A DNA stretch of 61,038 nucleotides, the filler included. It is 4 parts of 4 records of this genome, joined end to end, with 100 filler letters (N's around TTAATTAATTAA, not from the genome) between each part and the next. Parts side by side here need not be neighbours in the genome. Positions count along the whole stretch, not along the records: positions 18,082 to 44,714 come from SRR31156797_13021; 3 more parts are not named here. One strand, written 5' to 3'. Made by a program: the position numbers and the translations under genes. The notes under the pieces were generated by a model that did no database searches, was not told the DNA's origin, and was given only the letters and a program-made list of their open reading frames with translations. Below are positions 23,265 through 46,257 of this stretch, one piece after another; the stretch's first letter is position 1; each line of letters opens with the position of its first letter.

Positions 23265-25439
23265 ATGCCAAATAAACATCATGCTTTTTTTGCCACCTGC
23301 CCTAAGGGCATCGAGGATCTCCTTTATGAGGAGATGGTTTCCCTGGACATTTCACATGTAAAACGGACCCGTTCAGGCGTTTTTTTCAAAGGAAACCTTC
23401 AATCCGCATATAGAGTCTGTCTCTGGTCCCGTCTTGCCAACCGCGTGCTTCTTCCCCTGGCCCATTTTGAGGCCAAAACACCTGATGATCTCTATATCCG
23501 GATTCATGAACAGATACAATGGCATGATCACATGAACCCGGGGGGGAAAATCGCCGTGGATTTTACGGCGAACCACGCCAACACCTTTCATTCCCACTAT
23601 GCAGCACTTCGCGTTAAAGACGCCATCGCCGACCAGTTTCGCGCAAAATTCGGATACCGCCCATCCGTTGACACGGAAAACCCCGACATCCGCATCAATG
23701 TTTACATGAAAAATGAGCTGGCTCAGGTTTCTCTGGATTTGAGCGGCAACAGTCTTCACAAACGCGGTTATCGGTTGGACGGCGGTACGGCCCCCCTGAA
23801 AGAAAATCTGGCCGCTGCCATATTGATCCGAGCAAAGTGGCCTCAACTGGCTGAAAATGGCGCCCCTCTCGTTGACCCCCTGTGCGGATCGGGAACCCTT
23901 CTGATTGAAGGCGCACTCATGGCCCTGGACAGGGCGCCGGGGCTCTTGCGGCCCACCTTCGGCTTCCTGAATTGGAAACGGCACGACCGGGCCGTATGGC
24001 AAGGTTTGCGGAGGGAAGCGGAAGCGCGTGCGGAAAAGGGGATTCAAAGATGGTTTCAACCATTTTTCGGTTTCGACAAAGACCCTGGCATCATTGCTCA
24101 AGCCCGGTCCAATGCGGTCCGTGCAGGTATTGAGGGTATCGTGTCATTCCAAGTGCAGGATATCAAAGCCCTTACAGCCCCTGAAACAAAGGTTCCGGGA
24201 TTGCTGATCGCCAACCCTCCCTACGGGACACGCATGGGCAAGAAGATGAATCTTGAAAACCTCTATAAGTCACTGGGAGATCGACTGAAACAGCACTATC
24301 AAGGCTGGTCGGCCGGCGTATTTACCGCTTCTCCCCATCTGGCCAAGGAAATGGGCATCCGTGCCAGAAAACAATACCATCTTTTTAACGGTCCCATTCC
24401 CTGCAAACTTCTCAATTTTGACATTCAGGAAGAATGGGTCATGCACGAAAGGGGCCCCGGCCGCCCTCTGTCGCAAACCAAAAAACCGCCTGCTCCGGAC
24501 CCGGGCTCGGAGATGTTTCAAAATCGGCTGAAAAAAAATCTGCGGATTATTGGAAAATGGGCACGAAAGGAGGGTATCACCTGTTACAGGCTCTATGATT
24601 CGGACATGCCCGAATATGCCGTGGCTGTTGATATTTATGAAGACCGACTCCATGTTCAAGAATACCGGGCGCCGGGTACCGTTTCTCCTGAAAAAGCAAA
24701 AGGGAGGTTGAAACAGATTCTCTCCGTTCTTCCCCGGGCCTTGAACGTTCCGCCCGATAAAATTATTCTTAAAATGAGAGAGAAGAAAAAGGGAGATGCT
24801 CAATATGAGCGGTTTGATACCCAAGGTCATTTTTTTGAGGCCAGAGAAAACGGCCTCAAGTTTCTGGTGAATCTAACCGACTACTTGGATACCGGTCTCT
24901 TTCTGGACCAAAGACTTCTACGCCAGCGGGTGCAAAAGGAAGCCTCGGGTAAACGGGTATTAAATCTGTTCTGTTACACGGCGACCGCTTCGGTTTACGC
25001 GGCAAAGGGTGGTGCTGCCGCCACCAAAAGTGTCGACATGAGCAAAACCTATCTTTCTTGGGCAAGAAAGAACCTGGTCCTAAACAATTGCAACAGCCCC
25101 AATCACCAACTGGTCCAGGCCGACTGTCTGGAATGGATTGCCGCCTGCAAAGACCGCTATGACCTGATTTACCTGGATTCCCCCACTTTTTCCAATTCCA
25201 AGCGGATGAAAACTTCTTTTGATATCCAACGGGATCATGTGCAATTGCTGACCCGGACCTTAGGTCTCCTGGCTCGTGATGGGATCCTGATCTTTTCCTG
25301 TAATTATCGAAAATTCAAACTGAACCAAAAGGGACTATCGCAATGGATTATTAAAGATATCACCCGGCCCACCATTCCAAGGGATTTCCAGAGGAACCCA
25401 CACATCCATAAAGCTTTTGAGATTAGGAAAAGCATCTAA
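23265..25439 (+). CDS. rlmKL: Bifunctional 23S rRNA m2G2445/m7G2069 methyltransferase
   Basis: CLWSRLANRVL, THUMP, SLHKRGYR, DPLCGSGT, NPPYG; second domain YLDTGLFLDQR, LNLFCYT, PTFSNSKRM. Start set at ATG 23265. Confidence 0.95.
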   Translation: MPNKHHAFFATCPKGIEDLLYEEMVSLDISHVKRTRSGVFFKGNLQSAYRVCLWSRLANRVLLPLAHFEAKTPDDLYIRIHEQIQWHDHMNPGGKIAVDFTANHANTFHSHYAALRVKDAIADQFRAKFGYRPSVDTENPDIRINVYMKNELAQVSLDLSGNSLHKRGYRLDGGTAPLKENLAAAILIRAKWPQLAENGAPLVDPLCGSGTLLIEGALMALDRAPGLLRPTFGFLNWKRHDRAVWQGLRREAEARAEKGIQRWFQPFFGFDKDPGIIAQARSNAVRAGIEGIVSFQVQDIKALTAPETKVPGLLIANPPYGTRMGKKMNLENLYKSLGDRLKQHYQGWSAGVFTASPHLAKEMGIRARKQYHLFNGPIPCKLLNFDIQEEWVMHERGPGRPLSQTKKPPAPDPGSEMFQNRLKKNLRIIGKWARKEGITCYRLYDSDMPEYAVAVDIYEDRLHVQEYRAPGTVSPEKAKGRLKQILSVLPRALNVPPDKIILKMREKKKGDAQYERFDTQGHFFEARENGLKFLVNLTDYLDTGLFLDQRLLRQRVQKEASGKRVLNLFCYTATASVYAAKGGAAATKSVDMSKTYLSWARKNLVLNNCNSPNHQLVQADCLEWIAACKDRYDLIYLDSPTFSNSKRMKTSFDIQRDHVQLLTRTLGLLARDGILIFSCNYRKFKLNQKGLSQWIIKDITRPTIPRDFQRNPHIHKAFEIRKSI

Positions 25440-25605
25440 AATTCAAAAAAAGGTTCCTGTAAGACTGCGAAAAAATAGAATTGTCGCCTTTCCCATATTA
25501 TGCTACAAATGGCAGCGCATCTAAGACTTGGGCTTGTTGGAAAAAATGGGGGTTCCATACGCCCATCATTTACCATTTTCAAAAATCATCCGGACGAGAA
25601 AACAT

Positions 25606-26448
25606 ATGACTGACCATGAAACGCTCCTTCGGGATGCTCAAGAAGGCCTCAACGAAATCGTCAAACCCTATCAGGTGGAAATCAATCGGCGGCAGCGCAT
25701 GGCCAATTTCATCAAAACCTGCATGCGCGGCACGGCCCGGAACGACTTTCTTCAACTGGATGAGCTGTTAAAAACCAAAATGGCCCGTGACGTTCAGGAA
25801 GAAGCGGGCATTGAGGAAATCGGCCCGATCTTCCAAGGTCTGCGTGAATACGCCAACGAACAGGTGGAGCGCTACCGGATGGAGTTCATTGAAGATCTCA
25901 CAACCCTGGCCCGGGATGCCGACCTGGAAATAACCATCGACTTTCCCCGCTTCCACTCATTGAAGGGAATCGAGGGAGAAATCAATTTTTCCAATCGCAC
26001 CACCACCATCAACAAGAAACTGCTCAAATCCATTGACCCCAGACGCATCGTGACAGCCCTGCTCCGCGTCAAAAAGCAGCTCTACGGTCGCCCTTACGAC
26101 CCCAGAACCTTCATTGACGGTTTATATGAAATCTACCGTAACGTTCTCAAACAGGAAAGGCTGGCGCCGGGCGCCAAGGTTCCGGCCCAGCGGCTTTACC
26201 TGGCCTATGTGATTTCCCTGCAAAGCAAATCTTTTTTTCAGGACATGGACAAAGGCAAATTCCGCGGTTACAGCGGCGATCAGTTCAGCGTGGACCTGTG
26301 GCGCTATTTTCAGGCGGGCACCGAAGGCACATCCGGCGGCCATGTCCTTAAAATGACGCCGGGAAGGATCAGCGCCCTGTGGCTCATTGACAGCGATGGC
26401 GAAAAACGCCGCATCACCGGCATATCATTCGAGGAGAAAGAAGACTGA
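25606..26448 (+). CDS. Hypothetical protein, first gene of the DUF2791/helicase operon
   Basis: 280 aa from ATG 25606. Its TGA overlaps the ATG of the next gene. Confidence 0.8.
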   Translation: MTDHETLLRDAQEGLNEIVKPYQVEINRRQRMANFIKTCMRGTARNDFLQLDELLKTKMARDVQEEAGIEEIGPIFQGLREYANEQVERYRMEFIEDLTTLARDADLEITIDFPRFHSLKGIEGEINFSNRTTTINKKLLKSIDPRRIVTALLRVKKQLYGRPYDPRTFIDGLYEIYRNVLKQERLAPGAKVPAQRLYLAYVISLQSKSFFQDMDKGKFRGYSGDQFSVDLWRYFQAGTEGTSGGHVLKMTPGRISALWLIDSDGEKRRITGISFEEKED

Positions 26449-27749
26449 TGTTTCAACAAGCGATGGATCAGTTAAAACCATTCGAGGCGAGGGCCATTAT
26501 CGAGGAACTGAGAAAGGGGAGCGTTCCCGTGGAATACGTACCCTTTTTCACGGTGGGACGGGAAAACTGGCTCACCTTGATCGAGGACGACCTGGACAAC
26601 TACATCGCCGAGGGCGGCGCAAAGGTCCGTTTTCTGAGCGGCGATTACGGGGACGGGAAAACCCATTTCATGTCCGTAATCCGCCACTTGGCCCTTCAAA
26701 AGGGCTTTGCCGTATCCTTTGTGGTCCTAACCCGGGAAGTGCCCATTCATAAATTCGAGGCGGTTTACCAGGCCGTCGTAAAACAGCTTCGCGGCCGATT
26801 CGAGGGGATCGGCATCCAAAACCTGCTGGAGGATTTTGTAACTGACCTGGCGAAGGATCTGGTACTTGAAGACGGGTCACCATCTTCAGAAAAGTTGGCG
26901 ACCCTCTCCAACGAGATTCGCTCCCTTCCCGGCATGGACATCAATTTCGCCAATGGCGTGATCGCCCTGTTGAACAACCGTCTGCAGCCCCTCGGGGAAG
27001 GAGAGGCCCGGGAAGATCGGGACCATGCACGCGAGATTCTCCATCTCTGGTTTGAGGGCGGAAAGGTCGCGAAAAAAGAGATCAAGCCCTTTCATATCTT
27101 TGAGGTGGTCAACAAGGGCAACAGTAAAAATTTCCTCAACGCCCTGATCGCTTTTCTGCGCTTTGCAAAATACCGGGGTCTGATCCTTCTCATGGATGAA
27201 CTGGAAACCGTGGTAAGCCAGGGCAAGTCCATCCGCGGCGCGGCCTACGAAAACGTTAGATTACTCATTGACAATACGGAACAGGCAGGCTTTCTCCACA
27301 TATTTTTTTCCATCATCCCCGATATCCTGGAATCGGAAAAAGGGTTCAAGTCCTACGACGCCCTTTGGAGCCGGGTCAGGTCCATCGGTGAAAACAAGCG
27401 CCTCAACTATCGCGGGGTTCTCATCGACCTTCACAGGACCCCCTTGAAAACTAAGGAGCTGATAGCTCTCGGCAAAACCCTCCGAACCATTCACGGCGTC
27501 TCTTACCGGTGGAATGCGGAAGAACGCATCCCCGATAATCTCCTTTCAGATATCTGCAAAAACCAGAAAAAGATGGGGGTATTAAGCGAAGTGCGGCTTT
27601 TCGTAAAACAGGTCATCCGCATCCTGGACATGGGGGAACAGGGGGAAGACGAAATCGATGAACTGGATCTCACGGCCCAGATGGTTCAAAGCCAGGAAGA
27701 AATGGAAAAGGAAAAAATACAGCACCTTGAACCCAAATGGGATTCGTAA
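26448..27749 (+). CDS. DUF2791 / BrxD-like P-loop ATPase (copy 1)
   Basis: IIEELRKGSVP, TVGRE, Walker A GDYGDGKTH, ALQKGFAVSFV, Walker B GLILLMDELE, SYDALWSR. Confidence 0.85.
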   Translation: MFQQAMDQLKPFEARAIIEELRKGSVPVEYVPFFTVGRENWLTLIEDDLDNYIAEGGAKVRFLSGDYGDGKTHFMSVIRHLALQKGFAVSFVVLTREVPIHKFEAVYQAVVKQLRGRFEGIGIQNLLEDFVTDLAKDLVLEDGSPSSEKLATLSNEIRSLPGMDINFANGVIALLNNRLQPLGEGEAREDRDHAREILHLWFEGGKVAKKEIKPFHIFEVVNKGNSKNFLNALIAFLRFAKYRGLILLMDELETVVSQGKSIRGAAYENVRLLIDNTEQAGFLHIFFSIIPDILESEKGFKSYDALWSRVRSIGENKRLNYRGVLIDLHRTPLKTKELIALGKTLRTIHGVSYRWNAEERIPDNLLSDICKNQKKMGVLSEVRLFVKQVIRILDMGEQGEDEIDELDLTAQMVQSQEEMEKEKIQHLEPKWDS

Positions 27750-28991
27750 GTGGACATTCAGTCTTTAAAAAACACCCTCCAACAGGAATGCAATTTCACC
27801 CTCAGGCGTGCCGTTGAACGTCTGAGGGAAGGGATATTTGATCCGGCTGCAATCCGGTTGCTCACAGCCCAAGAGGATAAACTGGTTCGCTCCTTTGACC
27901 GGGGGCTTTCTTTTCCCGAAAACAATTTTTCTCCCCATCTCTGCATCCGCGGGGATTACGGCCGGGGAAAAAGCCATTCTCTCGCCTACCTTCAGGAAAA
28001 AGCTTTGAAAGACGGGTTCGTCACCAGCATGATCAATCTCGATCCCCGGGAAGTCCCGTTTCACGATTTCGGGCGGGTGTACCGGGCGCTTTTGGCCCGA
28101 ATCCGTTTTCCGGACCATGAGGGAGATTTTCATTCAAAATGGAAATCCTGGACCAGGGATATCTCAAAACAAGCCAAAGGCAACGGACATTTTGATCCGG
28201 CAATCCTTCCCGATGAAATGCCCCACTTTTTCAAGAGCATGCTGACGGCTGCGGCCAACAAAACCGTAAAGCTTTCAGACAAAAAGAAAGCCCTAAAAAA
28301 ACATCGGAAATACCAGCCCCGAGAGTTTCCATGGCTTATTAAACGGGCTCTGGCGGGAACCATTGTTCCGGTATACAGTCTTAGAAATGTTTGTAAATAC
28401 CGAAATGTGGAATTTTACGGAGAAGCCCCTTTGAAATGCATGTACCCTCGGGAATACCTCACGCAGGTATTCTGTATGGCAACGCTCTTTAAACGGATGG
28501 GATACAAGGGGTGGGTGGTTCTTTTTGACGAGGGTGAATCCATTGCTCAGACGCGGATTACCTGTAGAAGCAGAAGTTATCAATTGCTTCACGGAATTTT
28601 CAGTGACAACTCGGCCGTCACGGGTCTGTATCCGATTTTTGCTTTTACCAACGATTTTTACTTTCGGGTCAAAGAGGAAGACTACGAACGGATTCGGATC
28701 ACCCAAAAAGGTGAATTGCCCTGTTTTGACATGAACTACGCCCGTGCATGGGAAAATCTCGCAACCCATGAACTCCATGATCTGTCCGGGAAAGAATGGG
28801 ACCAATTGACCCAAAAGCTCCTTTTGCTTCACATGCACGCTTATGCATGGACGTCCGAAAACGGACCCATTCAAAAGGAAATGGAAGCCGTTCTGGCACA
28901 AACGGTCAACAGGGAAACCCGACTCAGGATGCAATCTCTGGTCAACCAACTGGATATGGTTCACCAGGAACAGGTGCTGCACTTGTCATAG
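27750..28991 (+). CDS. DUF2791 / BrxD-like P-loop ATPase (copy 2, divergent)
   Basis: RRAVERLREG, Walker A GDYGRGKSH, ALKDGFVTS, MGYKGWVVLFDEGE, RSRSY. GTG directly follows the previous TAA. Confidence 0.8.
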   Translation: MDIQSLKNTLQQECNFTLRRAVERLREGIFDPAAIRLLTAQEDKLVRSFDRGLSFPENNFSPHLCIRGDYGRGKSHSLAYLQEKALKDGFVTSMINLDPREVPFHDFGRVYRALLARIRFPDHEGDFHSKWKSWTRDISKQAKGNGHFDPAILPDEMPHFFKSMLTAAANKTVKLSDKKKALKKHRKYQPREFPWLIKRALAGTIVPVYSLRNVCKYRNVEFYGEAPLKCMYPREYLTQVFCMATLFKRMGYKGWVVLFDEGESIAQTRITCRSRSYQLLHGIFSDNSAVTGLYPIFAFTNDFYFRVKEEDYERIRITQKGELPCFDMNYARAWENLATHELHDLSGKEWDQLTQKLLLLHMHAYAWTSENGPIQKEMEAVLAQTVNRETRLRMQSLVNQLDMVHQEQVLHLS

Positions 28992-28993
28992 TT

Positions 28994-31900
28994 TTGGATT
29001 CCCCTCTTCTTAAACTCCCCAATACCTTTCGCGCCTTTTACGGAGCCTTTCCGTCTCTTTTTCCCTTTCAGCTTCAGACCATTGAACCGATCCTTCAGGG
29101 AAGGGACCTGATCTTACGATCCGGAACCGGAACCGGCAAAACCGAGGCGGTTCTGGCGCCCTGCCTTGAACGGGTCTTTATGTCCAAAGGCGTGGACCGC
29201 CTGGTTTATGTGGTTCCCACCCGAGCCCTGGCCTTTGATTTGAAACGCCGACTCGCCCCCATCATCACCCCGCGCCTTGGGCTGGGATTGGGGGTCCGTA
29301 CCGGCGACATTAAACGAAAAGGCGGCCGAACCCCTCACATCATGATTACCACGCCCGAATCCCTGGACGTACTTCTGGGAAGCCGGAATCCCGATCTCAG
29401 GGAATTTGTTTCACGGGCCAATATGGCCGTCATTGACGAAGTCCATCCCCTGGTACACCAGTACCGAGGCCGCCAGCTGGCCCTGGTGCTCAAGCGGCTT
29501 GAACGTCGAACGGGCCGGCTTTTGCAGAAAATCGCACTCTCCGCCACCATTGCCGACATGGACATCATAGCCCGGTTTTTCGATTTTTCATCCACCACGG
29601 TTCACCTTTCCGAAAATGTGTGCAAAGAGATTGTGCCCCACCTGGTTCATCTGAAAAATGAGGATGAAGAACTCACCGCCCTTTTTGACGATCTCTACCG
29701 ATTTTTCCAATACCGAAAAATCCTGATCTTTGCCAACAGCCGCAGCGCATGCGACCGATTGTTTGCCCTGCTGGGGAACAAAGGGTGTTTCAGCGGGGCC
29801 TGCGGCCTTCATTATTCAAATCTCAAGCCGAAAGAACGGCGGGCCGTGGAACGGAATTTTCGCCGGAATCCCCATGCCCTGTGCGTGGCCACCAGCACCC
29901 TTGAGCTGGGGATCGACGTGGGCGACGTGGACGCGGTGGTGCTGTATGAACCCCCGGATTCGGTTTCCGCCTTTCTTCAGCGCATCGGCCGCGCCAACCG
30001 ACGCGTTGAAAAAACATTTTTCTGGGGCATTTGCCGGGGGGTAAAGGCGGGTGAACAGTTGACCCGTTTCCTGGGCCTTCTCGACCTGGCGGAAAAGGGA
30101 GAGGTGGAAAAGCCTCTTCCGCGAAAATTGCACAGCGTTCTGGGCCAGCAGACGGTCAGTTGCCTTTATGAAAAACAGCGTATTTCACCCGGTGCCATGA
30201 AAGATCTGTTCCCTGAAGAAAGCCACGCACTGGATAACATTTTCAAAACCATGGAAAAAACGGGCTGGTTGTCCAGGGGATCCGTCAACGGTATGTTCCA
30301 AGGTGGATGGCAATACCATAATTCCCTTTTTGAATACGGCATATGGAGCAACTTCCCACCGGCTGAAGAAGACTATTCCCTTGAGTTGTCCAAGAAAGTC
30401 ATCGCCGATATCCCCCGGGCGGTCGTGGACCAGTTGGAACCGGGGGACCGGGTCAATCTGGCCGGTAAAAGGCTGTGTATCGCAGAAATCATCCATGCCC
30501 GGGGCGCCGGGCGGGTTTTGGCCGTCCCTTCAGATCGAACGGACAGCAAGGAAATATTCTGGTTGGGCCCCGCCAACCAGGTTTCATACGAAGTGGCCCA
30601 ATCCGTTCGAGAGGTACTCAAGAGTTCTAGCCCTTCGGAAAAAGGGCTTTTTTCACGAACCCGTCTATTGCTTGAACAAGAGCGGAAAAAAATGCGGGAT
30701 GCCGTCATCCTCAAAAACGGCATTGAGGTGGTATTGAACCCCAACGGCTTTTACCGCTACCTGACCTACATGGGATCCGTGGGGAACCTCATCCTGCGCT
30801 GGACCATCAGATACCACCTGCTCGTATCCGGGGAAGAAGATGTGTTTGTGGCTTCCGACGCCGTCGGCGTGGATTGCTCACACCTGATTGATTTCGAAAA
30901 GCTTTCCCTCCCCCTTCAAAAAGAGGATCTGATCTCATGGACAAGACGGAATTTCAAAGTGCTTAAAGCGTCATTTCCTCTAAACCGCTTCTGCAGCATC
31001 CTGCCGGAAACGCTTCATATGGCGGAAATGGCGGATTTTCTTTTTGATGAACGCGTATTGAACGCCTTTTTGCATTATCACGAAGCTTCTTCCACCATTC
31101 GCTCGGGAAGCTTCGATTTTTTTGAGCGGGAACACCATGGGGACAAGGGAGATACCCCTGCGCCCATTGAAATACCGGCAACCGGTCAACCCCTTCTTGA
31201 CCTTGCAAAAGCATGTGGGAAACCCGTGCCTGAAGTTTCCCTCGATTTCCGAGCCCACTCGAACCGTCCGCTCACCGGCGGCATTCTGGCGGACTATTTC
31301 AGGCATCTTCAGTGCGAGCGTTTCCTGCGCCTTCATTTTGTGCCGGCTCATCTTCCACCGGCCTCACAAGCGCCACTTGATGCGGTGACGGATGAACGCA
31401 TTAAAGCGGGTCGTCAATTTGAAGCAACCGTCATGATCCATTTACGAAATAATGGCGCGACCCTGGTTTCCATAACCGAAAGAGATGCCACTGGAAATTT
31501 CAGATCCATGGAACTTCGGCATGGGGAAACCATTGAGGGGTTGAAAAAATTGATGGAAACGCCGGTTGGGGAAAGCAGCGGTCCCCGTTATCTTTCTCAG
31601 GGGCTGCTCCGCGAAAACGGCCTGCTTTCGGATGTGGACGGCATCGGCATTCCGGACCTGATTCGCGTCTCCCGGGAAAAGGAAATCCATGTTTTAACGG
31701 TGGGAGAATTCAAAAGCAGCCCATCTCCCCGATTTCACCACAAATGGCAAGTGGCCTTCTACGCCTTTCTACTCAACAAGATGATGGGGGAACAAAAGAT
31801 TAATGGCACCATCTCCAACCGGGGGTTTCTGCTATTGCCCGCGCAAAAAGATGCGGGGAAAATAGTCGAATACGCATTTGATTTAAATCCGTATCTGTCG

Positions 31901-34687
31901 GCTTTTCCGGCATTGATTCAAAATCTGGATGCGGTTATCTCCAAGAATGCCAAAAGAGCGGAATTCCAACTCAAGAGTCATTGCGTTTATTGCCGATGGT
32001 TCAACTGCTGCCATCAAGAAGCCTTGAACCGGGAAGAGATTCAGTTTTTACCGAACCTGACACCCGGACAGCTGGAGAGACTGAGAGCCCTGAACATCAA
32101 AAACATAAAGCAGGCGATTCAATGGCTGGAGGCCCCGAAAACCGACCCGGCCTCCATACCGCCTCACACGGACCAACAACTGAAAGCCAAAATCGACGCC
32201 GTCTCAAAACACCACATTCTGCTGAAAAACAAATCTACGCGTCTTTTTCCAACCAACATCTCGGTATCCACCATTCTCTACGCAATCCCCGGACCGCATA
32301 GCCGGACCCTGGGGCTGCGCGCAGTAGACGACAAAGGTAATGAGGGAACAGTCCGCACCTGGGAGATGCAAACGGACGGCAACAACAGGGAATCGGCATG
32401 GCATGATTTCGTAAATGTTCTTTTTGCCATCTGGAACCGAGCCATTCAAAAGGGCAAGGGACCGCACGTATTTTCCTTCGGCGGCAAAACACCGTCCCTA
32501 CTTCTCAAATGGGCAGGGGAAATGGGAAGATCGGCGGAATATGAATGGATCGCGGACATGGTTCAAAACCACTGGACCGATCTTCGCCGGGTTTTCAGGT
32601 CCCATTTCACACTCCCCATCCCCGGGGAGCTCACCCTCTATTCCCTGCACCATATCCTGGGCCTGGGCCCCGCTATCAAAAGGCCCTCAAGTCTGTTTCA
32701 CGGGGACAGGCATGAGATTGGACTGAAAGAAGCGCTGATGCTCTGCGGCAACCTGAAAAACTGGCTTTTGGGCCGCCTTGTGAGCCATCGACGGCAAGAA
32801 GGGTGGAAAACGGGGAAGGAAAATGAAGATCCATCCCGATCATATATCCAATTTGTGGAAGAACAGCAACGCTTGAAGCAGGAAGACATCTTGAAGTTGC
32901 AAACATATTCCCTGAAGGAGCGGGTGGAACGTTTCAGGGCCATGGGGCCGATCCGCTTTACGGGAAAAGAATTGGATCATGAAGGAAAATTCCGGTACAA
33001 CTTTTCCATAAGCCACAACCACGGCGCAAGCAAATTCCGGGAAGGGGATTTTTTAAAACTGGCGCATCAAGGGATACCTGATCTTCAAAACGGGTTTTCC
33101 GTTATTCTGAACCGGTACGCCCCAACCGGGAAAACCCTCTCCATCGGCTCCCGGCAGGGACACCTGGCCTTAAACCGACGTATTTCATATTCCCTGGAGG
33201 AAGACGCGGAGGATTGGACCGCCCCCAAACTGAATCACGCGGTTAAAGCCGTTCTGGGCCGGGAAGCACATCCATTCTCACGCTTATTGCGGGGAAACGG
33301 CGCTCGCACACAACATCAAAGCGCCCTAACCTGGATAGGAAAATGGCTCGCACAAAACAAATCCATCGTCGGACTCAATACGGCCCAAAGACGGGCCATG
33401 GAACTCCCTTTTTCCCATGGGCCGGGTCTCATTGACGGTCCTCCCGGAACCGGGAAAACCCATCTTCTGGGCTGGATGCTGATGGCGCTCATCCTCCACG
33501 CCCATGAATCGGGAAAACCCTTGCGCATTGCGCTCAGCGCCCTGACCCACCAGGCCATCGACAACGCACTTGAAAAGGTGGCGCAATTATTGAAGCGGTT
33601 CAACCTCCGCGGCTTTCCCGCACCGTTGATCAAGTGGGGCGATCCCGGTGATTCTGAAAAGGACAATGATGATCTCGGTGTTGAAACATCCAATGATCCG
33701 GAACATATTCTGAGGCGGCCATATCTGATTCTCGGCGCCACAGGATACGGGCTCTACCGCCTTTTTGACAGCCGCAACGGCCGTTTCCCGCCGTACTTTG
33801 ACTGGATGGCCCTGGATGAAGCCTCACAGATGCTGGTTCCCCAGGCGGCCCTGACCCTGGCCTACGGAAAGGGAAATTATCTTTTTCTGGGGGATATTCA
33901 ACAGTTGCCTCCCATTGTGCTGGGCCATGATGAAAGGGAAAACGAAACAGACCTATCACCGAACGGAAAACCGGTGGACGTTCGAAAATCGGTCCTTGAG
34001 CATCTCTTTCAGCATTACGGCGCCGAAAATCGCATCCGCCTGAATGTCACCTACCGGATGAACCGAGAACTCTGCCGGTTTCCGAGCCGCACCTGGTACG
34101 ACGGCGACCTTCACCCCGCCCCTGAAAACGCAAAATCGAGACTCGTGTTGAAAGGGACAATTTCCGACAACCCGATAGACCGGCTCATCGACCCGGATCG
34201 ACCCGCAACCCTCGCAATCATGGACCATCACCGGCATCATCAGGAATGCGAACCGGAAGCCGACCTCATTGCCCGCATCGCCTCCCGAATGATCATCCAT
34301 TTCGCCGTTCATCCGCGGCAGATCGGTTTGATCTCCCCCCATCGCGCTCAAAACAACCTCATCGCAGCCCATCTTTCCAGTCTGCTTGAGGGATCGGGCC
34401 ATGAACTTCCCCTCATTGATACGGTAGAGCGGGTTCAAGGCGCGGAAAAAGACGTCATTATTTTCGGGTTCACCACATCGGATCGGGACCATATCACGTC
34501 CGGGTTCTTAAACAATCCCAATCGATTTAATGTGGTCATGACCAGGGCGAGGAAAAAGCTCATCGTGATCGGCAGCAAGGTTTTTTTCTCCACCATTCCA
34601 AACCGGGAAAAAGAACTCGAAAATAACGCCTGCTTCAAGGAATTTTATGAGCACTGCAAGAAAGAGGGAAATCTCTTTTTTCTTTGA
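28994..34687 (+). CDS. Fusion of Lhr-like SF2 helicase, Cas4/RecB-like PD-(D/E)xK nuclease with Fe-S cysteines, and Upf1/Dna2-like SF1 helicase
   Basis: SF2: GTGTGKT, PTRAL, TTPESL, DEVH, SAT, TSTLELGIDVG, QRIGRA. Nuclease: C...GIPDL...GEFKS...QVAFY...CVYCRWFNCC. SF1: GPPGTGKT, DEASQ, GDIQQLPP, YRM, TVERVQGAEKD, RFNVVMTRAR. Start set at TTG 28994, 2 nt after the upstream stop. Confidence 0.88.
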   Translation: MDSPLLKLPNTFRAFYGAFPSLFPFQLQTIEPILQGRDLILRSGTGTGKTEAVLAPCLERVFMSKGVDRLVYVVPTRALAFDLKRRLAPIITPRLGLGLGVRTGDIKRKGGRTPHIMITTPESLDVLLGSRNPDLREFVSRANMAVIDEVHPLVHQYRGRQLALVLKRLERRTGRLLQKIALSATIADMDIIARFFDFSSTTVHLSENVCKEIVPHLVHLKNEDEELTALFDDLYRFFQYRKILIFANSRSACDRLFALLGNKGCFSGACGLHYSNLKPKERRAVERNFRRNPHALCVATSTLELGIDVGDVDAVVLYEPPDSVSAFLQRIGRANRRVEKTFFWGICRGVKAGEQLTRFLGLLDLAEKGEVEKPLPRKLHSVLGQQTVSCLYEKQRISPGAMKDLFPEESHALDNIFKTMEKTGWLSRGSVNGMFQGGWQYHNSLFEYGIWSNFPPAEEDYSLELSKKVIADIPRAVVDQLEPGDRVNLAGKRLCIAEIIHARGAGRVLAVPSDRTDSKEIFWLGPANQVSYEVAQSVREVLKSSSPSEKGLFSRTRLLLEQERKKMRDAVILKNGIEVVLNPNGFYRYLTYMGSVGNLILRWTIRYHLLVSGEEDVFVASDAVGVDCSHLIDFEKLSLPLQKEDLISWTRRNFKVLKASFPLNRFCSILPETLHMAEMADFLFDERVLNAFLHYHEASSTIRSGSFDFFEREHHGDKGDTPAPIEIPATGQPLLDLAKACGKPVPEVSLDFRAHSNRPLTGGILADYFRHLQCERFLRLHFVPAHLPPASQAPLDAVTDERIKAGRQFEATVMIHLRNNGATLVSITERDATGNFRSMELRHGETIEGLKKLMETPVGESSGPRYLSQGLLRENGLLSDVDGIGIPDLIRVSREKEIHVLTVGEFKSSPSPRFHHKWQVAFYAFLLNKMMGEQKINGTISNRGFLLLPAQKDAGKIVEYAFDLNPYLSAFPALIQNLDAVISKNAKRAEFQLKSHCVYCRWFNCCHQEALNREEIQFLPNLTPGQLERLRALNIKNIKQAIQWLEAPKTDPASIPPHTDQQLKAKIDAVSKHHILLKNKSTRLFPTNISVSTILYAIPGPHSRTLGLRAVDDKGNEGTVRTWEMQTDGNNRESAWHDFVNVLFAIWNRAIQKGKGPHVFSFGGKTPSLLLKWAGEMGRSAEYEWIADMVQNHWTDLRRVFRSHFTLPIPGELTLYSLHHILGLGPAIKRPSSLFHGDRHEIGLKEALMLCGNLKNWLLGRLVSHRRQEGWKTGKENEDPSRSYIQFVEEQQRLKQEDILKLQTYSLKERVERFRAMGPIRFTGKELDHEGKFRYNFSISHNHGASKFREGDFLKLAHQGIPDLQNGFSVILNRYAPTGKTLSIGSRQGHLALNRRISYSLEEDAEDWTAPKLNHAVKAVLGREAHPFSRLLRGNGARTQHQSALTWIGKWLAQNKSIVGLNTAQRRAMELPFSHGPGLIDGPPGTGKTHLLGWMLMALILHAHESGKPLRIALSALTHQAIDNALEKVAQLLKRFNLRGFPAPLIKWGDPGDSEKDNDDLGVETSNDPEHILRRPYLILGATGYGLYRLFDSRNGRFPPYFDWMALDEASQMLVPQAALTLAYGKGNYLFLGDIQQLPPIVLGHDERENETDLSPNGKPVDVRKSVLEHLFQHYGAENRIRLNVTYRMNRELCRFPSRTWYDGDLHPAPENAKSRLVLKGTISDNPIDRLIDPDRPATLAIMDHHRHHQECEPEADLIARIASRMIIHFAVHPRQIGLISPHRAQNNLIAAHLSSLLEGSGHELPLIDTVERVQGAEKDVIIFGFTTSDRDHITSGFLNNPNRFNVVMTRARKKLIVIGSKVFFSTIPNREKELENNACFKEFYEHCKKEGNLFFL

Positions 34688-34822
34688 GGCTTTTCGCTAA
34701 TTTTTTAAAACCTCATCCGACCGCCCAATTATGCGGGCTGAAGTCACCATTTCCTCCCCGTCTCAATAGTGGTCTGCATTGATCAGTGGAAAACCGGAAG
34801 TTGCCTTTTTTCCAGCTTATAA

Positions 34823-35362
34823 TCAAATTTTTCTGCAAACAGCCACCGTATGAATGCCGTGGGGTTCTGTGGTCGTCTGGACGCGCCATCTGCCCGATGC
34901 TTCAATCAACCGCAGAAAATTCTCTTTTTTCCTGTATAGCATAGGCCAGCAGAGGGCCCACCGGAGAAAAGACCATTCGAAATTGGGATGGATGTGGCAG
35001 GTAACAAAATGACCTTCCATTGGCAACAGACTGTAAATCCGGGACATGAGCGCGACGGCCTTTTCATCGGGGCGGTAATCAAGAAATCCTGCCATTTCAA
35101 TAATCTGAGGCTTAAATCCGTTGACACCGACCCCAGAGCCCAGGTTTTTCACAACAACGGCACGGCCCGCTTTATGGTGGAGTTCCTCCAGCACCTGGGG
35201 CAAGATCGCATGAGACAAGGCCACATGCCTCCGCCTCAAAGAATCACACATGTCTAAACCCAGAGTAATCTCATCCAGCTCCCGCCGGTAATTCGGCACC
35301 TTCTCAAAGAGCTCAAGATCGTGGGTGTACACAAGAAGGGGAAAGCCGTACCCGAAATGCAA
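34823..35362 (-). pseudogene. Remnant of a class I SAM-dependent methyltransferase
   Basis: Motif I-like NLGSGVG abuts IIEMAGFLDY with the intervening region apparently missing. WPMLYR C-terminal motif. No RBS; the 5' end abuts a PIN fragment. Confidence 0.5.
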
Positions 35363-36425: not shown

Positions 36426-37019
36426 GTGAGGACGAAGTTGGCCCCTTTGACGGATGAACAACTTGTAAAAAAATGCAAGCGCGGATTTCAAAAACGGAAG
36501 CATTGGGATGTTCTGATTCTTCGTTATGACAAATACGTAAAGGAAATCGCCCGAAAAAGGTTGTCTGACCCGGAACCGGTTAAGGACATTGTGCAGGATA
36601 CTTTTTTTAAAGCTTTTAAGGGGCTAGGAAGTTTCAGGGGAGACTGCAGCTTCAAGACCTGGCTCTCCGTAATCGCCGTAAGGCTTTGCAGCAGTTATCA
36701 GAGGGATGCAGCAAGAAACCGTGAACGATTTCCTTTCTCCTTTGAGGATGAAAAAGTTAAAACAGACAAAATTTTCACTGAAAAGCGAGAAAAAGATACC
36801 CTTAAGCAATTGCTCAACAAGGAAGAAAAAATGATGGTGAGATCCGCATTAAAGGAGCTTTCAAAGGCCCATCGAGAGACCATCACCTTATGGAGCGAGG
36901 GATTTTCCTATGAGGAAATTGCAGAACTCATGGGGACCTCCACAAAAACCGTCGGCTCCAGAATCTATTACGCCAAGATTAAAATCAGGGAAATGTTGGT
37001 AAGGAAGGGCTTTTTCTAA
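36426..37019 (+). CDS. ECF sigma-70 factor
   Basis: DEQLV, DIVQDTFFKAF..L.SFRGDCSFKTWL, region 4 EGFSYEEIAELMG....TVGSRI. Confidence 0.92.
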   Translation: MRTKLAPLTDEQLVKKCKRGFQKRKHWDVLILRYDKYVKEIARKRLSDPEPVKDIVQDTFFKAFKGLGSFRGDCSFKTWLSVIAVRLCSSYQRDAARNRERFPFSFEDEKVKTDKIFTEKREKDTLKQLLNKEEKMMVRSALKELSKAHRETITLWSEGFSYEEIAELMGTSTKTVGSRIYYAKIKIREMLVRKGFF

Positions 37020-37071
37020 CTGAAAACGAAGTTCCTTAATTTATAGGGATACCAAAAAGAGGACGAAACCC

Positions 37072-37557
37072 ATGAAAAATAAATGTGAAGAGATGGCGCC
37101 CCTCATAAGCGCCTACCTTGACGGAGAAAGCACGAAGAGCGACAGACGGGAGGTTGAAGGGCATTTGGCGTTATGTGAGGATTGCCGGAAACTGGCCCGC
37201 GAACTGGATATGGCGGGGCAATTTATTAAAGAAACCCTTTTTGAAAATGCCGAATCCGAATGGCGCCCCGACTTTGTTGATGAAGAGAGAAAGACGCCGA
37301 CCGATATTTGGGGTCCTATCAGGGAGCGAATAAAAAAGCTGATCGGAAAACCCCTTGTCTGGGCGCCGGCAGCAGTTGCGGCGGCTGCAATGGTCCTTAT
37401 GGTGTTCACATTTCCTTTTGAGGATTCAAAAGCGCCGTTTGAAGTGAGCAAAGTGGAATCGGTTTTCAGCCGAAGCGGGAAGGTCATGATCCTTCAGACG
37501 GGCAAAACCGGCGAACCGATTATCTGGATACTCCCTGAAAAAAGCACATCAGGATAA
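37072..37557 (+). CDS. zf-HC2 membrane-anchored anti-sigma factor
   Basis: CEEM..LISAYLDGE...HLALCEDC, one TM segment, short periplasmic tail. Confidence 0.9.
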   Translation: MKNKCEEMAPLISAYLDGESTKSDRREVEGHLALCEDCRKLARELDMAGQFIKETLFENAESEWRPDFVDEERKTPTDIWGPIRERIKKLIGKPLVWAPAAVAAAAMVLMVFTFPFEDSKAPFEVSKVESVFSRSGKVMILQTGKTGEPIIWILPEKSTSG

Positions 37558-38787: not shown

Positions 38788-39672
38788 ATGAAAAAACCAG
38801 TGTTTTTATTTGCCGCCGTCTTTTTAATCGGCATTCCGGGGTTCGTCAACGCTTCCCAGGGGGTGGCCATTCAAAGGATTATCACCAATGCCCGGTCCGA
38901 ATTGGGTCAACTGGCCGACTCCGGCAAGGCCAGGGAGATCGCCCGGTTGATGCAAAAATTCGATCAACAGTACGGAACCTGGAGCAATTCCTGCGGGGCA
39001 GGAGACGCCTTCGACCCTGAAAGCGCCAGCGATGCCTGCAAGGAAATGGCGTCGCAAATGCGGGAAACGGGAATCTCCCTTTACGGCAAACTTTCCGAAT
39101 ACCTTCCGGACGTGGCGGCCAGATATGAACAGGGCGCCCGGTCGGCCCGAAGGATCGTCGAAATCCGTGCCCTGGACAAAACGCCCGCGGCCCTGTATCG
39201 CGCCAGCATGGACGGAATCGCGGAGGCCCCCAAATTGGGAGGGACCGCTTCCGGAGATGCAGGCAGCCCCTTTGACGTTGAGATGGACGATTTTCCGGAT
39301 CCCACCGACAAGATGTTTACAGTCCTTGAAAAACTGGTGCCGGACTTCGGCAAGGAGCTCCCCCAATCGGTCAGGGCCGGCAATACGCAGATCACCATGA
39401 CAAAGAAGGCCAAACGGGCGCGCTATCTTGCAGAGCGTTTCCGAAAAGCGAAACTTGTTCTGGAATCACAGCGAAATTACGGGGAAATTGTCTTCAACGT
39501 CACAAAGGCCGTCAACGCCATGCCCCAGGTCTTTGGAATTCAGTATACCGGAACGCGGCTCACGGCCAGGCCCAATCAAAAGGTACTGGAATACTACCGT
39601 TCCGGGAAAACCGACGGACCGGCAACGAAAAAGAATAAACGCCCGAGCGGCGGCTTTGAGCCACGCTCATAA
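38788..39672 (+). CDS. Exported hypothetical protein
   Basis: RBS AAGGAGG, signal peptide, one Cys pair, 294 aa. Confidence 0.75.
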   Translation: MKKPVFLFAAVFLIGIPGFVNASQGVAIQRIITNARSELGQLADSGKAREIARLMQKFDQQYGTWSNSCGAGDAFDPESASDACKEMASQMRETGISLYGKLSEYLPDVAARYEQGARSARRIVEIRALDKTPAALYRASMDGIAEAPKLGGTASGDAGSPFDVEMDDFPDPTDKMFTVLEKLVPDFGKELPQSVRAGNTQITMTKKAKRARYLAERFRKAKLVLESQRNYGEIVFNVTKAVNAMPQVFGIQYTGTRLTARPNQKVLEYYRSGKTDGPATKKNKRPSGGFEPRS

Positions 39673-39706
39673 ATCATACATTTACACGGATAAGGAGGAA
39701 GAAGCT

Positions 39707-40282
39707 ATGCGGTATCATGACGGTATATATAAGGTTATCCTTTTGTTGGGATTTCTTTCGGTTGTTCTTTTTACAACAGGGTGCGGCAAAAAGCAGCCTG
39801 TTCACACGGAACCACCATCGCCCGGGCTGACGTCCATACACCAGATTGATTCCTTCGACCCTGAACAGGCCTGTCGCCAGGCCCTGGAAGTTATCAACAA
39901 CAATCCGTACGGACAGGAGTTTTTTGAAAAGACCTTCGCCCGTGTCGTGAACCGGTGCAACAATCATAAGGCGGCGGTCAATGCCGACATTATATGGAAC
40001 CATCTGGTCATCCCCCTGAGACAAAGTGGAAAGGTTCCGCCGGATCTGGCCAAGGCCACCTGGAATTGCTACTTTTCCCGGCAGTTTGTCAGTCTGCCGG
40101 ACATGGGACCGATCACCCATTATTGTAACAGTCTTGCCGACATCAAAAACAGCCTGGAAAAGGAATATCAACTCAAAAAAAGAGGTTTTGAGATCTGTCG
40201 ACAAGGGAGCGTGGAACCGCATTTTCTGAATGCCATGTATGTCTACAATACCATGTGGGCGGCTTGTCACGGCACTGAATGA
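39707..40282 (+). CDS. Cys-rich lipoprotein of unknown function
   Basis: RBS TAAGGAGG before ATG 39707, lipobox FTTGC, six further Cys. Confidence 0.75.
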   Translation: MRYHDGIYKVILLLGFLSVVLFTTGCGKKQPVHTEPPSPGLTSIHQIDSFDPEQACRQALEVINNNPYGQEFFEKTFARVVNRCNNHKAAVNADIIWNHLVIPLRQSGKVPPDLAKATWNCYFSRQFVSLPDMGPITHYCNSLADIKNSLEKEYQLKKRGFEICRQGSVEPHFLNAMYVYNTMWAACHGTE

Positions 40283-40378
40283 AGATCCCACTGAAAATAC
40301 GATAGGAGAAACGCGGGCCTTGCCGCCGCCAATGGAAAGAATGCGGAAATTTGGCCCATTCGGTAATGGAGAAACATT

Positions 40379-41020
40379 ATGAAAACCCTTTTATATTTCG
40401 CCGTGTCCCTGGTTCTCGCTATTGTCCTATGCCTTTTTCTGATGACCACCGGAATTTTGAAGGTAAACCGCGAAAGCCTATGGGCTAACATCGAAACCGT
40501 GAAAAATAGTGCGTTTTCAGTCCTAACGAGGACAGAGAATGTTATACGGAACAAAAACATCAGTGCAAACCAAAGCCGGAAGGTCCCGCTCAAAACCTCT
40601 GCATCGCCTCCAACCGATGATCGGATACTATCCTCAAAACCGGGACCCTATACCGATAGAAACAGGCTCCATGAACGCGCACTTGAATTCTTGTCCGGAA
40701 AACAAGGCCATGTAGATCCTGACGTGGAAGAACAATTCACTGAATTCCTGCTGCAGGAGCTTGCGCTTAACCAGGAGGATGCCGAAAAATTTGTGCGCAT
40801 GTGTTTCTGGAAGAACTTCGTTACCTTGCAGGAACAATGGCAGTCCACGGACGGGGACAGAATGGGTGAGGCGTTCAGACGTGAAAAAGAACTGAAAAAG
40901 GCGGGATTCGCCGCAAAAGGCCTCCGTCTCATGCCGACTGAAATCCAGCATGCCGAAGCTCGCCTGGAAGAGCTCCAAGGCTCATCTTCCCATAGAAAAA
41001 TCCAGGGTGATAAGTCATGA
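40379..41020 (+). CDS. Membrane-anchored hypothetical protein
   Basis: N-terminal TM segment, RBS GGAG, ATGA overlap with the next gene. Confidence 0.7.
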   Translation: MKTLLYFAVSLVLAIVLCLFLMTTGILKVNRESLWANIETVKNSAFSVLTRTENVIRNKNISANQSRKVPLKTSASPPTDDRILSSKPGPYTDRNRLHERALEFLSGKQGHVDPDVEEQFTEFLLQELALNQEDAEKFVRMCFWKNFVTLQEQWQSTDGDRMGEAFRREKELKKAGFAAKGLRLMPTEIQHAEARLEELQGSSSHRKIQGDKS

Positions 41021-41574
41021 AGTCCGTGCTCGGAATCTTCCTGCTTTCTTTGTGCTGGTGTACCCTCTTTCTGATTCTAGGCGTTTTTTCAGGTTGGATC
41101 ACCATATCCGCAAGGGCTCCGTGGCTCATGGATCCTGCCGCCTTTCTCTACAGACATCTGAGATTGTCAACGGTTCCGTTTGGGTGCCTCTTTCTTGTCT
41201 ACGGCTACTTGATATGCAAAGTAAAGCGTTTGCTGAACCGGGAAAACACAACCCTTTCGCAACTCACCTATTATGATCGGTTGCTGAACACCACCATCTC
41301 CACCTTCTTCGGAGTGGGCGTCATCTGGACGGCCATCGGAATGGAAACGGCCTTGATGCAGGCCCTGGGGAGCGTTTCCCAAGGCCGCACGGCAGTGGAA
41401 TCCCTAGGCGCATTGGGGCTTCTGGAGCGGCTTGTCAACGGCGGCCTTTTGCTGGCCTTGAGTACGACGGTCTTCGGCGGGGCATGCGGATATCTGCTCA
41501 GGATATTAAAGATACTATTGCTCGGCGAAGGGTGGGACCGCCTTGTCATTGAGGAGGCGGGAAGAGATGGATAA
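41017..41574 (+). CDS. MotA/TolQ/ExbB-like membrane protein
   Basis: Four hydrophobic segments. FFGVGVIWTAIGM and GGLLLALSTTVFGG parallel the G..GT..GM and G...AL.TT..G motifs of the family. Confidence 0.65.
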   Translation: MKSVLGIFLLSLCWCTLFLILGVFSGWITISARAPWLMDPAAFLYRHLRLSTVPFGCLFLVYGYLICKVKRLLNRENTTLSQLTYYDRLLNTTISTFFGVGVIWTAIGMETALMQALGSVSQGRTAVESLGALGLLERLVNGGLLLALSTTVFGGACGYLLRILKILLLGEGWDRLVIEEAGRDG

Positions 41575-42304: not shown

Positions 42305-42422
42305 AACGTCTTTTCAAACGTCTATCTTTACCGGAAGATGCACAAATGTTCAATTTCCAAACGGAAGGGTAGGAAACCCAAGCTTCCGGTCTTTGAACCA
42401 CCAAAAAATAGGAGAAAGCCAA

Positions 42423-43244: not shown

Positions 43245-43330
43245 ATCCATTTGGGCCGCAATATGTTCTTTCATGGCGCCACTTGAAACGGATGGATGCA
43301 CATGGAAACGCAATCAACCGGGGAGGAAAA

Positions 43331-44814: not shown

Positions 44815-44816
44815 AA

Positions 44817-46145: not shown

Positions 46146-46257
46146 TTCTCTGGCAGGGTAATTCCCCATTAAATAAATAAGAATATTTTTAAAAAGGAGA
46201 ATGATTACATTTTCTGAACTCAAGAGATTCCTTTAGAAAAAAACAAATTTTTAACAA

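Follow-up and report, generated by a model that had tools for sequence, protein, structure and literature searches.

A 61,038-nt stretch of DNA (hereafter the window) encodes, in the part that comes from record SRR31156797_13021, a single 1,897-amino-acid (aa) protein in which two helicases of different superfamilies are joined to a nuclease. From its N-terminus the protein comprises a superfamily 2 (SF2) helicase of BrxHI/Lhr type, a linker, a four-cysteine PD-(D/E)xK nuclease, a helical segment followed by an RNase H-like fold, a Upf1-type barrel with its stalk, and a superfamily 1B (SF1B) helicase (Table 1). This fusion is a trait of a whole family and not an assembly artefact. An initial annotation, made from the letters of the window, had read the protein as standing alone; it is instead encoded by the last of four genes (gene 4), behind a protein of ~280 aa that matches no family and two BrxD-like ATPases, and we infer that it acts as the effector of this four-gene cassette. 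The cassette is a helicase-nuclease system built on the BrxD-BrxHI dyad, and we lean, with modest confidence, towards its role being the destruction of invading phage or plasmid DNA independently of DNA modification.

The reading frame from 28994 to 34687 is open over 1,897 codons and closed by a stop, as initially annotated, and every motif named in that annotation was recovered by script at the place it had given. The longest possible open reading frame (ORF) over gene 4 begins at an ATG at position 28796 and would overlap gene 3, which ends at 28991; the N-terminus that follows from the TTG at 28994 agrees with the consensus of 24 homologues, 'MxxxxSPLLQLPNTYRAFYG'. No stop or misassembly was found inside the gene: a 61,240-nt Logan contig from run X1 spans positions 28900-34800 unbroken and shows 0 differences. 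Since X1 is possibly the source sample, what this comparison checks is a second assembler and not a second sample. Two other runs add nothing to the check: from X2, which has a small share of the words, only two pieces of 18 letters fitted, and from X3 none did.

A homologue search with gene 4 in 5.8 billion clustered proteins returned 881 matches. Among the 120 of these that were listed, 110 align over 98% or more of the query (42-80% identity, lengths of 1,882-2,097 aa), and the fusion is therefore a family trait. Where the source names the listed proteins, they are labelled only 'DEAD/DEAH box helicase', 'AAA domain-containing protein' and similar; they come from Desulfobacterota (including cable bacteria), Latescibacterota, Gemmatimonadota and SAR324. 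In GTDB, with one genome per species, a relative is encoded at 353 of the 385 places where the pattern matched. The carriers include a cultured strain, Desulfobacter curvatus DSM 3379 (locus L031). Both the N- and the C-terminal parts are present in 62 of the 77 loci that were kept, some of them from complete chromosomes, and most of the remaining 15 are cut by contig ends. Alignment with the relative at locus L001 runs over residues 1-1897 at 78% identity without a frame break. The composition of the window changes abruptly at ~18.0-18.2 kb and at ~44.8 kb, and some chimerism of the contig is possible, but these breaks lie 11 kb and 10 kb away from gene 4 and outside it. With the same full-length architecture in so many listed homologues and fetched loci, and with the agreement of a second assembler, the idea that assembly or gene calling has united two separate genes is vanishingly improbable.

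The N-terminal helicase carries the motifs GTGKT (aa 46, nt 29129), DEVH (aa 148, nt 29435), SAT (aa 183) and QRIGRANR (aa 329), together with PTRALA, TTPES and TSTLELGID. Pfam places DEAD (1.2e-28) and Helicase_C (1.3e-18) at aa 24-336, both above their cut-offs. The nearest solved chain is Lhr of M. smegmatis (5v9x, 1.9e-28), as the Lhr-type N-terminus of the initial annotation would have it; the best stretch of this match spans only aa 14-260, and the Lhr-type equivalogs of NCBIfam stay far under their cut-offs (TIGR04121, 192.5 vs 850; PRK09751, 84.7 vs 1496). The PADLOC model of BrxHI (PDLC02503) extends further and matches aa 19-694 with model positions 22-689 of 698 (2.5e-83), and the SngC model of Shango gives a weaker match (aa 19-682, 5.7e-65). 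In BrxHI, the C-terminal region has been described as a winged helix-turn-helix, a small beta-barrel and a domain like the C-terminal domain of Lhr (PMC12839542). The linker that follows is probably flexible.

The nuclease domain is of the Cas4/AddB/Dna2 type. Its motifs are an early cysteine within QCERF (aa 773-774, nt 31310), GIPDL (aa 885, nt 31646), GEFKS (aa 904, nt 31703), QVAFY (aa 919, nt 31748) and CVYCRWFNCC (aa 997, nt 31982), and the key residues are C774, D888 of GIPDL, E905 and K907 of GEFKS, Q919 and Y923 of QVAFY, and C997-x2-C1000-x5-C1006. All four cysteines (C774, C997, C1000, C1006), D888, K907 and Q919 are invariant in 24 homologues, which upholds the earlier reading as an Fe-S PD-(D/E)xK nuclease. 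At aa 884-1007 Pfam gives Cas_Cas4 (2.4e-5) and PDDEXK_1 (9e-5), both above cut-offs. The C...CxxCx5C pattern is that of the 'iron-staple' nucleases AddB, Cas4 and Dna2 (PMC7430649), and the domain is predicted to carry an Fe-S cluster and to be active as a DNase.

At the C-terminus, the SF1B helicase shows GPPGTGKT (aa 1482, nt 33437), DEASQ (aa 1608, nt 33815), GDIQQLPP (aa 1633), YRMN, TVERVQG (aa 1810, in TVERVQGAE) and VVMTRAR (aa 1847, in NVVMTRAR), and at aa 1461-1862 Pfam reports AAA_11 (5.7e-17) and AAA_12 (1.8e-33) above cut-offs. The closest solved relatives are Dna2 (5eax, 6e-22, over aa 1458-1864) and IGHMBP2 (1.2e-21), with Upf1 also among them, in line with the Upf1/Dna2-like assignment made initially. 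No NCBIfam model reaches its cut-off on the gene 4 effector.

Between nuclease and SF1B helicase, Pfam finds nothing from aa 1010 to aa 1460, even at E<=10. The initial annotation had guessed at a degenerate RNase H-like domain of the TM0106 type, and the guess holds up. TIGR03491, the model of the TM0106 family, matches aa 907-1210 with its positions 117-400 of 462 (2.4e-11), scoring 43.3 bits, below its cut-off of 97.45, so the resemblance is only partial. An AlphaFold2 (AF2) model of aa 1009-1460, built from 44 aligned sequences, reached a pLDDT of 83.1 and a pTM of 0.70. Compared with the Protein Data Bank (PDB) by Foldseek, the middle of this model resembles RNase H1 (4h8k, 8.5e-4), 3'hExo (1zbh, 1.7e-3) and RNase T (2f96, 1.9e-3) as well as RuvC and EndoV folds, and its last ~175 residues resemble IGHMBP2 (4b3g, 1.2e-5), Dna2 (5ean, 5.5e-5) and Upf1 (9qdq, 1.8e-4). 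The barrel and helix elements that precede the SF1 motor go by the names '1B' and 'stalk'. In the 44 sequences the RNase H-like part has no conserved acidic triad; an active site of the DEDD or DDE type is not conserved because D1196 (D188 of the model) is the sole acidic residue among the invariant or near-invariant columns. The first strands of the window protein have no acidic residue where the family consensus reads 'IFIHxxxDP', and the domain looks inactive.

Outside the family itself, aa 701-1897 bring up three groups in an exhaustive HMMER search. The first consists of stand-alone SF1 helicases of ~580-620 aa whose match begins near aa 1282, the second of proteins of ~1,200-1,400 aa with a match to the helicase, and the third of proteins of the DpdJ kind with SF1 followed by SF2. 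Four of the five second-group proteins that were scanned have an N-terminal PDDEXK_1 or Cas4 domain, with AAA_11/AAA_12 from about residue 800; the fifth, P0193, has no nuclease match. P0170, a stand-alone protein of 1,236 aa, aligns with the gene 4 nuclease at 29% identity (E 4e-24), including VDGIGIPD, QVAFY and the cysteines, and with its helicase at E 2e-41. The profile of the central region matches residues 252-749 of P0218 over 405 columns (probability 90.7%, E 1.2e-6). By sequence, the C-terminal ~1,130 aa of gene 4 are thus homologous to stand-alone nuclease-helicase proteins of ~1,250 aa.

These proteins have the layout of Bad, a DNA2-like enzyme of Geobacillus stearothermophilus with nuclease residue D150, Walker A residue K815 and an Fe-S cluster, which acts as a single-stranded DNA (ssDNA) endonuclease and as a 5'-to-3' translocase and helicase, and which adjoins a Type III-like methyltransferase (PMC7430649). 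Like Bad and DNA2, gene 4 has a four-cysteine RecB-type nuclease in front, a bacterial-specific domain in the centre and an SF1B helicase at the C-terminus; unlike them, it holds this module as its C-terminal two thirds, preceded by an SF2 helicase, and its cassette includes BrxD-like ATPases. The likeness to Bad rests on the shared layout, sequence homology being established for the stand-alone proteins P0170 and P0218. The 2020 report on Bad calls the structure of its central domain 'completely unknown', with no detectable homology (PMC7430649). Judging from our model, and through the profile homology to stand-alone proteins with the layout of Bad (P0218), Bad-type enzymes probably have in their central domain an inactive-looking RNase H-like fold with a Upf1-type barrel behind it.

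Across 24 full-length homologues of 43-80% identity, no catalytic motif of either motor or of the nuclease varies; the mean column identity of the effector among them is 53%. Both helicase ATPase cores look intact, and neither motor appears to be inactivated. From family membership, the two motors would run with opposite polarity. It could also be that only one of them is a true translocating motor, the other helicase using ATP to act as a sensor or switch by which the nuclease is licensed. The helicase-like domain of AddB is not a motor, and the ~75-aa linker of gene 4 is unconserved and may not keep both motors on one fork. In Hachiman, the helicase HamB is described as a sensor and as constraining the nuclease HamA (PMC12278908). 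We give this arrangement a low probability: the invariance extends to the ATP-binding, coupling and nucleic-acid motifs of both helicases, which argues for two working ATPases, though not necessarily for two translocases.

In eukaryotes, helicases of the Upf1-like and Ski2-like kinds work largely on RNA, and the machine might act on RNA or RNA:DNA hybrids, such as R-loops, phage transcripts or replication primers, and not on duplex DNA ends. The RNase H-like fold of the central region and the match of the C-terminal helicase to the Mokosh MkoA models (PADLOC, 8.4e-44) would suit such a substrate, as would the ability of Lhr to unwind RNA:DNA duplexes while tracking along DNA (PMC5758891). However, the RNase H-like part has no conserved acidic triad, the four-cysteine nuclease is of the DNA-cutting type found in AddB, Cas4 and Dna2, Bad with its same layout is an ssDNA translocase and DNA helicase (PMC7430649), and the partner genes encode ORC/Cdc6-type BrxD ATPases as in a DNA-targeting system (PMC12839542). 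We therefore consider an RNA substrate very unlikely and retain DNA as the probable target of the cassette.

The four genes of the cassette lie on the same strand and abut or overlap, gene 3 beginning 1 nt past the stop of gene 2 and finishing 2 nt before gene 4. Gene 2 matches PF10923 (BrxC_BrxD) with 1.5e-58 and 199 bits against a cut-off of 22.2, and PADLOC BrxD with 1.5e-45; in 33 sequences its residues G65-T72 and D250/E251 are invariant, and its mean column identity is 68%. Gene 3 is more divergent (PF10923, 1.2e-19 and 71 bits; PADLOC BrxD, 1.6e-21). Gene 1 likely starts at the ATG at 25606, which gives a protein of ~280 aa. No Pfam and no PADLOC family matches it at E<=0.001, and at E<=10 Pfam offers only a weak Methyltransf_5 (0.0031, below cut-off). 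Its 35 relatives are 51-83% identical to it, with a mean column identity of 64%, so that gene 1 and the first ATPase are both better conserved than the effector. A scan of 25200-35200 for promoters and terminators was uninformative (3 promoter-like sites vs 6.6 expected, 18 terminator-like sites vs 15.4 expected).

Table 1. Genes of the cassette and domains of gene 4 in the window
Feature	Position (nt)	Strand	Basis
Gene 1, no family match, 306 aa from TTG 25528	25528..26448	+	stop overlaps gene 2 start
Gene 2, BrxD-like ORC/Cdc6-type AAA+ ATPase, 433 aa	26448..27749	+	Walker A GDYGDGKT, Walker B ILLMDE
Gene 3, second, more divergent BrxD-like ATPase, 413 aa	27750..28991	+	Walker A GDYGRGKS, Walker B VVLFDE
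Gene 4, helicase-nuclease-helicase, 1,897 aa	28994..34687	+	TTG start, stop 34685-34687, open frame
SF2 DExH helicase core, aa ~14-345	29033..30028	+	Pfam, Lhr 5v9x, motifs invariant in 24 sequences
BrxHI-type C-terminal region of SF2 helicase, aa ~346-694	30029..31075	+	PADLOC BrxHI model
Poorly conserved linker, aa ~695-769 (~75 aa)	31076..31300	+	consensus of 24 homologues mostly 'x'
Four-cysteine ('iron-staple' type) PD-(D/E)xK nuclease, aa ~770-1008	31301..32017	+	Pfam, invariance
Central region, aa ~1009-1280: helical segment, then RNase H-like fold (aa ~1081-1268)	32018..32833	+	AF2, Foldseek
Upf1/IGHMBP2/Dna2-type stalk helices and beta-barrel (1B-like), aa ~1281-1457	32834..33364	+	Foldseek
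SF1B (Upf1/Dna2-like) helicase, aa ~1458-1897	33365..34684	+	Pfam, Dna2 5eax, motifs invariant

The arrangement recurs well beyond the window. For 52 related loci there is upstream DNA of at least 4.2 kb; by tblastn, all three upstream genes, with order and strand unchanged, occur in 39 of these, 2 have part of them and 11 have none. Three of the genomes with none were searched, and in all three the trio was found elsewhere as a single block (gene 1 at 56-62% identity, the first ATPase at 61-72%, the second at 45-50%); on a complete Electrothrix chromosome it lies ~2.1 Mb from the effector. The association of the effector with two AAA+ ATPases and a small protein is obligate-looking.

Some loci vary in spacing. 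In 4 of the 39 loci the second ATPase and the effector stand 0.7-1.2 kb apart, against under 0.31 kb otherwise, and wide gaps (L040, L044, L066, L071, L075, L077) hold unrelated small ORFs. One of these, of 122 aa (L066, 7578-7946), was considered as a further member of the cassette and rejected, as it has no match in any other locus. In one genome with a split cassette, locus L081 (G003:C43:11237-15406) holds a second, distant BrxD-like gene (22% identity) directly followed by the start of an SF2 helicase (32% over aa 18-200), a pair that looks like an ordinary dyad of the BrxD-BrxHI or Shango type.

Several known systems share parts of this design. BrxD and BrxHI form a tightly linked dyad of type 2 (Pgl) BREX (PMC12839542), in which an ORC/Cdc6-type BrxD stands directly upstream of a BrxHI helicase, as in the cassette, whose genes the BrxD and BrxHI models match. 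Unlike type 2 BREX, the cassette has two BrxD paralogues instead of one, an extra first gene and a 1,200-aa nuclease-SF1B extension on its helicase. Pfam and PADLOC scans of the ORFs at 17-46 kb did not find the type 2 core (PglX, PglZ, BrxC/PglY, PglW), and membership was rejected on this ground; besides the cassette these ORFs encode RhlB, RpsA, the rRNA methyltransferase RlmKL, an extracytoplasmic function (ECF) sigma/anti-sigma pair, an SLT protein and proteins without assignment.

Shango, which has been shown experimentally to protect against phages (bioRxiv 2022.11.11.516204), is likewise an operon of a small protein (SngA, with TerB), an ATPase (SngB) and a DEAD/DEAH helicase (SngC). 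The SngB (1.9e-35) and SngC models match the cassette, both more weakly than those of BrxD and BrxHI. The cassette differs in that its ATPase is duplicated, its helicase shares a chain with a nuclease and a further helicase, and gene 1 has no match to TerB or SngA; the lack of TerB in gene 1 (PADLOC at E<=0.001, Pfam at E<=10) led us to reject membership of Shango.

DpdJ, from the Dpd system of 7-deazaguanine DNA modification, also unites SF1 (AAA_11/AAA_12) and SF2 (DEAD) helicases in one chain, and its PADLOC models match both halves of gene 4 (2e-44 and 1.8e-31). In DpdJ, unlike gene 4, the SF1 part comes first and the operon partners are others; P0215 and P0242 show this order, with SF1 at the N-terminus and DEAD further on, and neither has a match to a Cas4-type nuclease. 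Membership was rejected on the score of NF041067 (NCBIfam), 43.1 bits against a cut-off of 800.

The initial annotation had likened the protein to RecBCD. This stands as a looser analogy: RecBCD, AddAB and AdnAB would share with gene 4 motors of opposite polarity and a RecB-family nuclease acting on one duplex, and AddB also has a four-cysteine nuclease (PMC7430649). These enzymes, however, are multi-subunit and combine SF1A and SF1B motors, whereas gene 4 is one chain with SF2 and SF1B motors and a single nuclease, so that the likeness is one of mechanism by analogy and not of membership. Because the C-terminal two thirds of gene 4 has the architecture of Dna2 and Bad, a closer parallel is a RecQ-type helicase working with Dna2, a eukaryotic pairing (PMC7430649). 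We found no description of this architecture or of the cassette in the literature searched, including passages of a BREX survey (PMC12839542), of a paper on Cas4 phylogenomics (PMC5704561), of the Shango papers and of a 2025 preprint on modularity.

How, then, might the cassette work? The ORC/Cdc6-type ATPases, perhaps with the product of gene 1 as adaptor, would recognise a DNA end, a fork or abnormal DNA, and the BrxD-like pair would load or license the effector, much as a survey of BREX suggests that BrxD may load or activate BrxHI (PMC12839542). The SF2 motor would then travel 3'-to-5' on one strand, as does Lhr, which translocates in this direction on ssDNA (PMC5758891). The SF1B motor would travel 5'-to-3' on the other, as do Bad and Dna2, which track this way with the nuclease ahead of the motor (PMC7430649), and would feed that strand to the nuclease, the outcome being a duplex that is unwound and cut processively. 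The polarity of the motors, the loading step, the substrate, the anti-phage role, the nuclease activity and the Fe-S cluster are what we infer. A bolder version, which we regard as doubtful, would make the cassette a new class of modification-independent immune nuclease, in which a fused bacterial counterpart of the eukaryotic RecQ-helicase/DNA2 resection pair is put in place at the ends or replication forks of foreign DNA by the two ATPases and a small adaptor, in the manner of ORC, Cdc6 and Cdt1, its motors then running with opposite polarity while the Fe-S nuclease shreds one strand.

A complex prediction bears on the adaptor. Gene 1 paired with the first ATPase gave an ipSAE of 0.56 (runs of 0.56, 0.00 and 0.56), the best of 3 controls giving 0.00; the runs agree in at least 0% of contacts, the partner pLDDT is at least 77, and the prediction was made without the family alignments built in this analysis. 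Solved complexes pass the ipSAE mark in 51 of 78 cases and mismatched pairs in 2 of 108, but the range at 0.60 or under contains only 5 of those 78 complexes and all 4 of the passing mismatches (of 180). Gene 1 may thus bind the first BrxD-like ATPase.

The cassette is accessory and not core, because its distribution is patchy and because it is absent behind rlmKL in close relatives. With a profile of the central region, the gene 4 family was found in 4 of the 40 nearest relatives of the related genome G004; an even sample of 200 other genomes across the phylum of G004 contained it in 3. In the window the cassette has rhlB, rpsA and rlmKL (966 bits) upstream, and an ORF without assignment and the ECF sigma/anti-sigma pair downstream; of the related loci, only L001, L002 and L006, which are the closest, share the rpsA-rlmKL flank. 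Four close relatives that lack the family (L084-L087, with RpsA 91-97% identical) keep rpsA-rlmKL and have no cassette behind it, over the 1.5-13.9 kb compared. Among 16 diverse loci all flanks differ, and 7 have toxin-antitoxin, defence or mobile-element genes within 8 kb: an OLD-type TOPRIM protein and an integrase (L019), DndB and a Dam methylase (L025), a DruA fragment (L043), IS110, two PIN genes and Cas1 (L055), HipA and HEPN (L059), PIN (L072) and IS200 (L052). We rate a role against invading DNA as the likeliest because the nearest profile relatives are components of BREX and Shango and because the cassette is patchy and moves between contexts.

Several observations weigh against this role. 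The cassette has no conserved methyltransferase or other self-marking partner, which leaves the discrimination between self and non-self unexplained. In at least 3 genomes the effector is split from the trio, which is unusual for a defence system. The other 9 of the 16 surveyed loci, and the window itself, have housekeeping, metabolic or unassigned flanks and are not clear defence islands. A tblastn search with aa 701-1460 of plasmid and phage collections gave no match at E<=1e-10, and viral contigs yielded 1 locus from 14 pattern matches, limited to the SF2 core (33% over aa 8-396). The match of gene 2 to BREX_BrxD (NCBIfam) is 153.8 bits, under the cut-off of 350. Finally, in two truly unfused variants (L040, L066) a helicase of only 736-763 aa stands behind the three upstream genes, with no match to the nuclease or SF1 part in the following 2.5-3.6 kb, so the core cassette can do without the nuclease-SF1 module.

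A different view, in which the cassette is an accessory machine of DNA repair, recombination or fork processing, is favoured by those genomes where the arrangement is split, by the housekeeping flanks and by the missing self-marking partner. Gene 4 would then be the fused counterpart of a RecQ-type helicase and Dna2, engaged in the resection of breaks or in the processing of stalled forks or crosslinks, as Lhr is in mycobacteria. Dna2 is itself a factor of replication and repair that acts with RecQ helicases (PMC7430649). We rank this view second and think it possible but unlikely. The cassette is not a replacement for RecBCD, a candidate rejected because RecC (PF04257) is above cut-off in 4 of 5 carrier genomes. 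Presence and absence behind rlmKL, patchiness among close relatives and spread across phyla also speak against repair, as do the closest profile matches, which are to defence components (BrxD/BrxHI and SngB/SngC), and we continue to prefer the destruction of invading DNA.

If the motors are truly opposite, gene 4 would be a single-chain answer to a problem that RecBCD, AddAB and the pair of RecQ-type helicase and DNA2 solve with several subunits, and a compact model for the coordination of two motors with a nuclease. The cassette also extends the BrxD-BrxHI dyad beyond BREX; here the dyad is paired with its own nuclease, which may throw light on its function in BREX and Shango.

Among minor observations, the AF2 model of gene 1 (pLDDT 88.4, below 50 in residues 1-15) shows a long helical hairpin, a small beta unit, and C-terminal helices with a beta hairpin. 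Foldseek against the PDB gave no row at E<=0.001 (best 0.5), a result that excludes no family, and the C-terminal half met only non-significant rows of Cdt1, Stn1 and ORC that are winged-helix-like. The wide VIA-align comparison gave no convincing match, with Z<=7.6 restricted to the helical hairpin (aa ~45-120), and the look-alikes in the Atlas are clusters of 278-284-aa 'hypothetical protein' only. In-frame stop codons occur in gene 1 at L025 (4579-5421, 1), L047 (144-1016, 2), L077 (3319-4233, 1) and L021 (4450-5310, 1), and in the effector at L018 (7502-9010, 1); these are decaying copies or errors in the assembly of metagenome-assembled genomes (MAGs).

The site behind rlmKL is variable in the clade: in L084-L087 the genes there include PIN, a DDE transposase, an OprB porin and a ComM-like ATPase, and the window and L002 differ even downstream of the cassette. 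By GC content the window falls into three blocks, of ~25-37% (1-18000), ~44-53% (18200-44800) and ~36-43% (44800-61038), and at 18.0-18.4 kb GC climbs from 25% to 53% in some 400 nt. The middle block resembles Desulfobacterota, its RpsA being 95% identical to that of a Desulfobacteraceae MAG, and the last encodes the gliding-motility lipoprotein GldD (46258-46842), of a family typical of Bacteroidota. The three blocks may reflect a chimeric contig or large islands; the Logan contig of X1 would by its offsets span both breaks and was compared only over 28900-34800. Downstream of the ECF sigma/anti-sigma pair (36426-37557), positions 38788-44770 hold a run of same-strand ORFs of 294, 284, 213, 185, 253 and 516 aa without a Pfam family, interrupted by an SLT lytic transglycosylase at 42297-43244.

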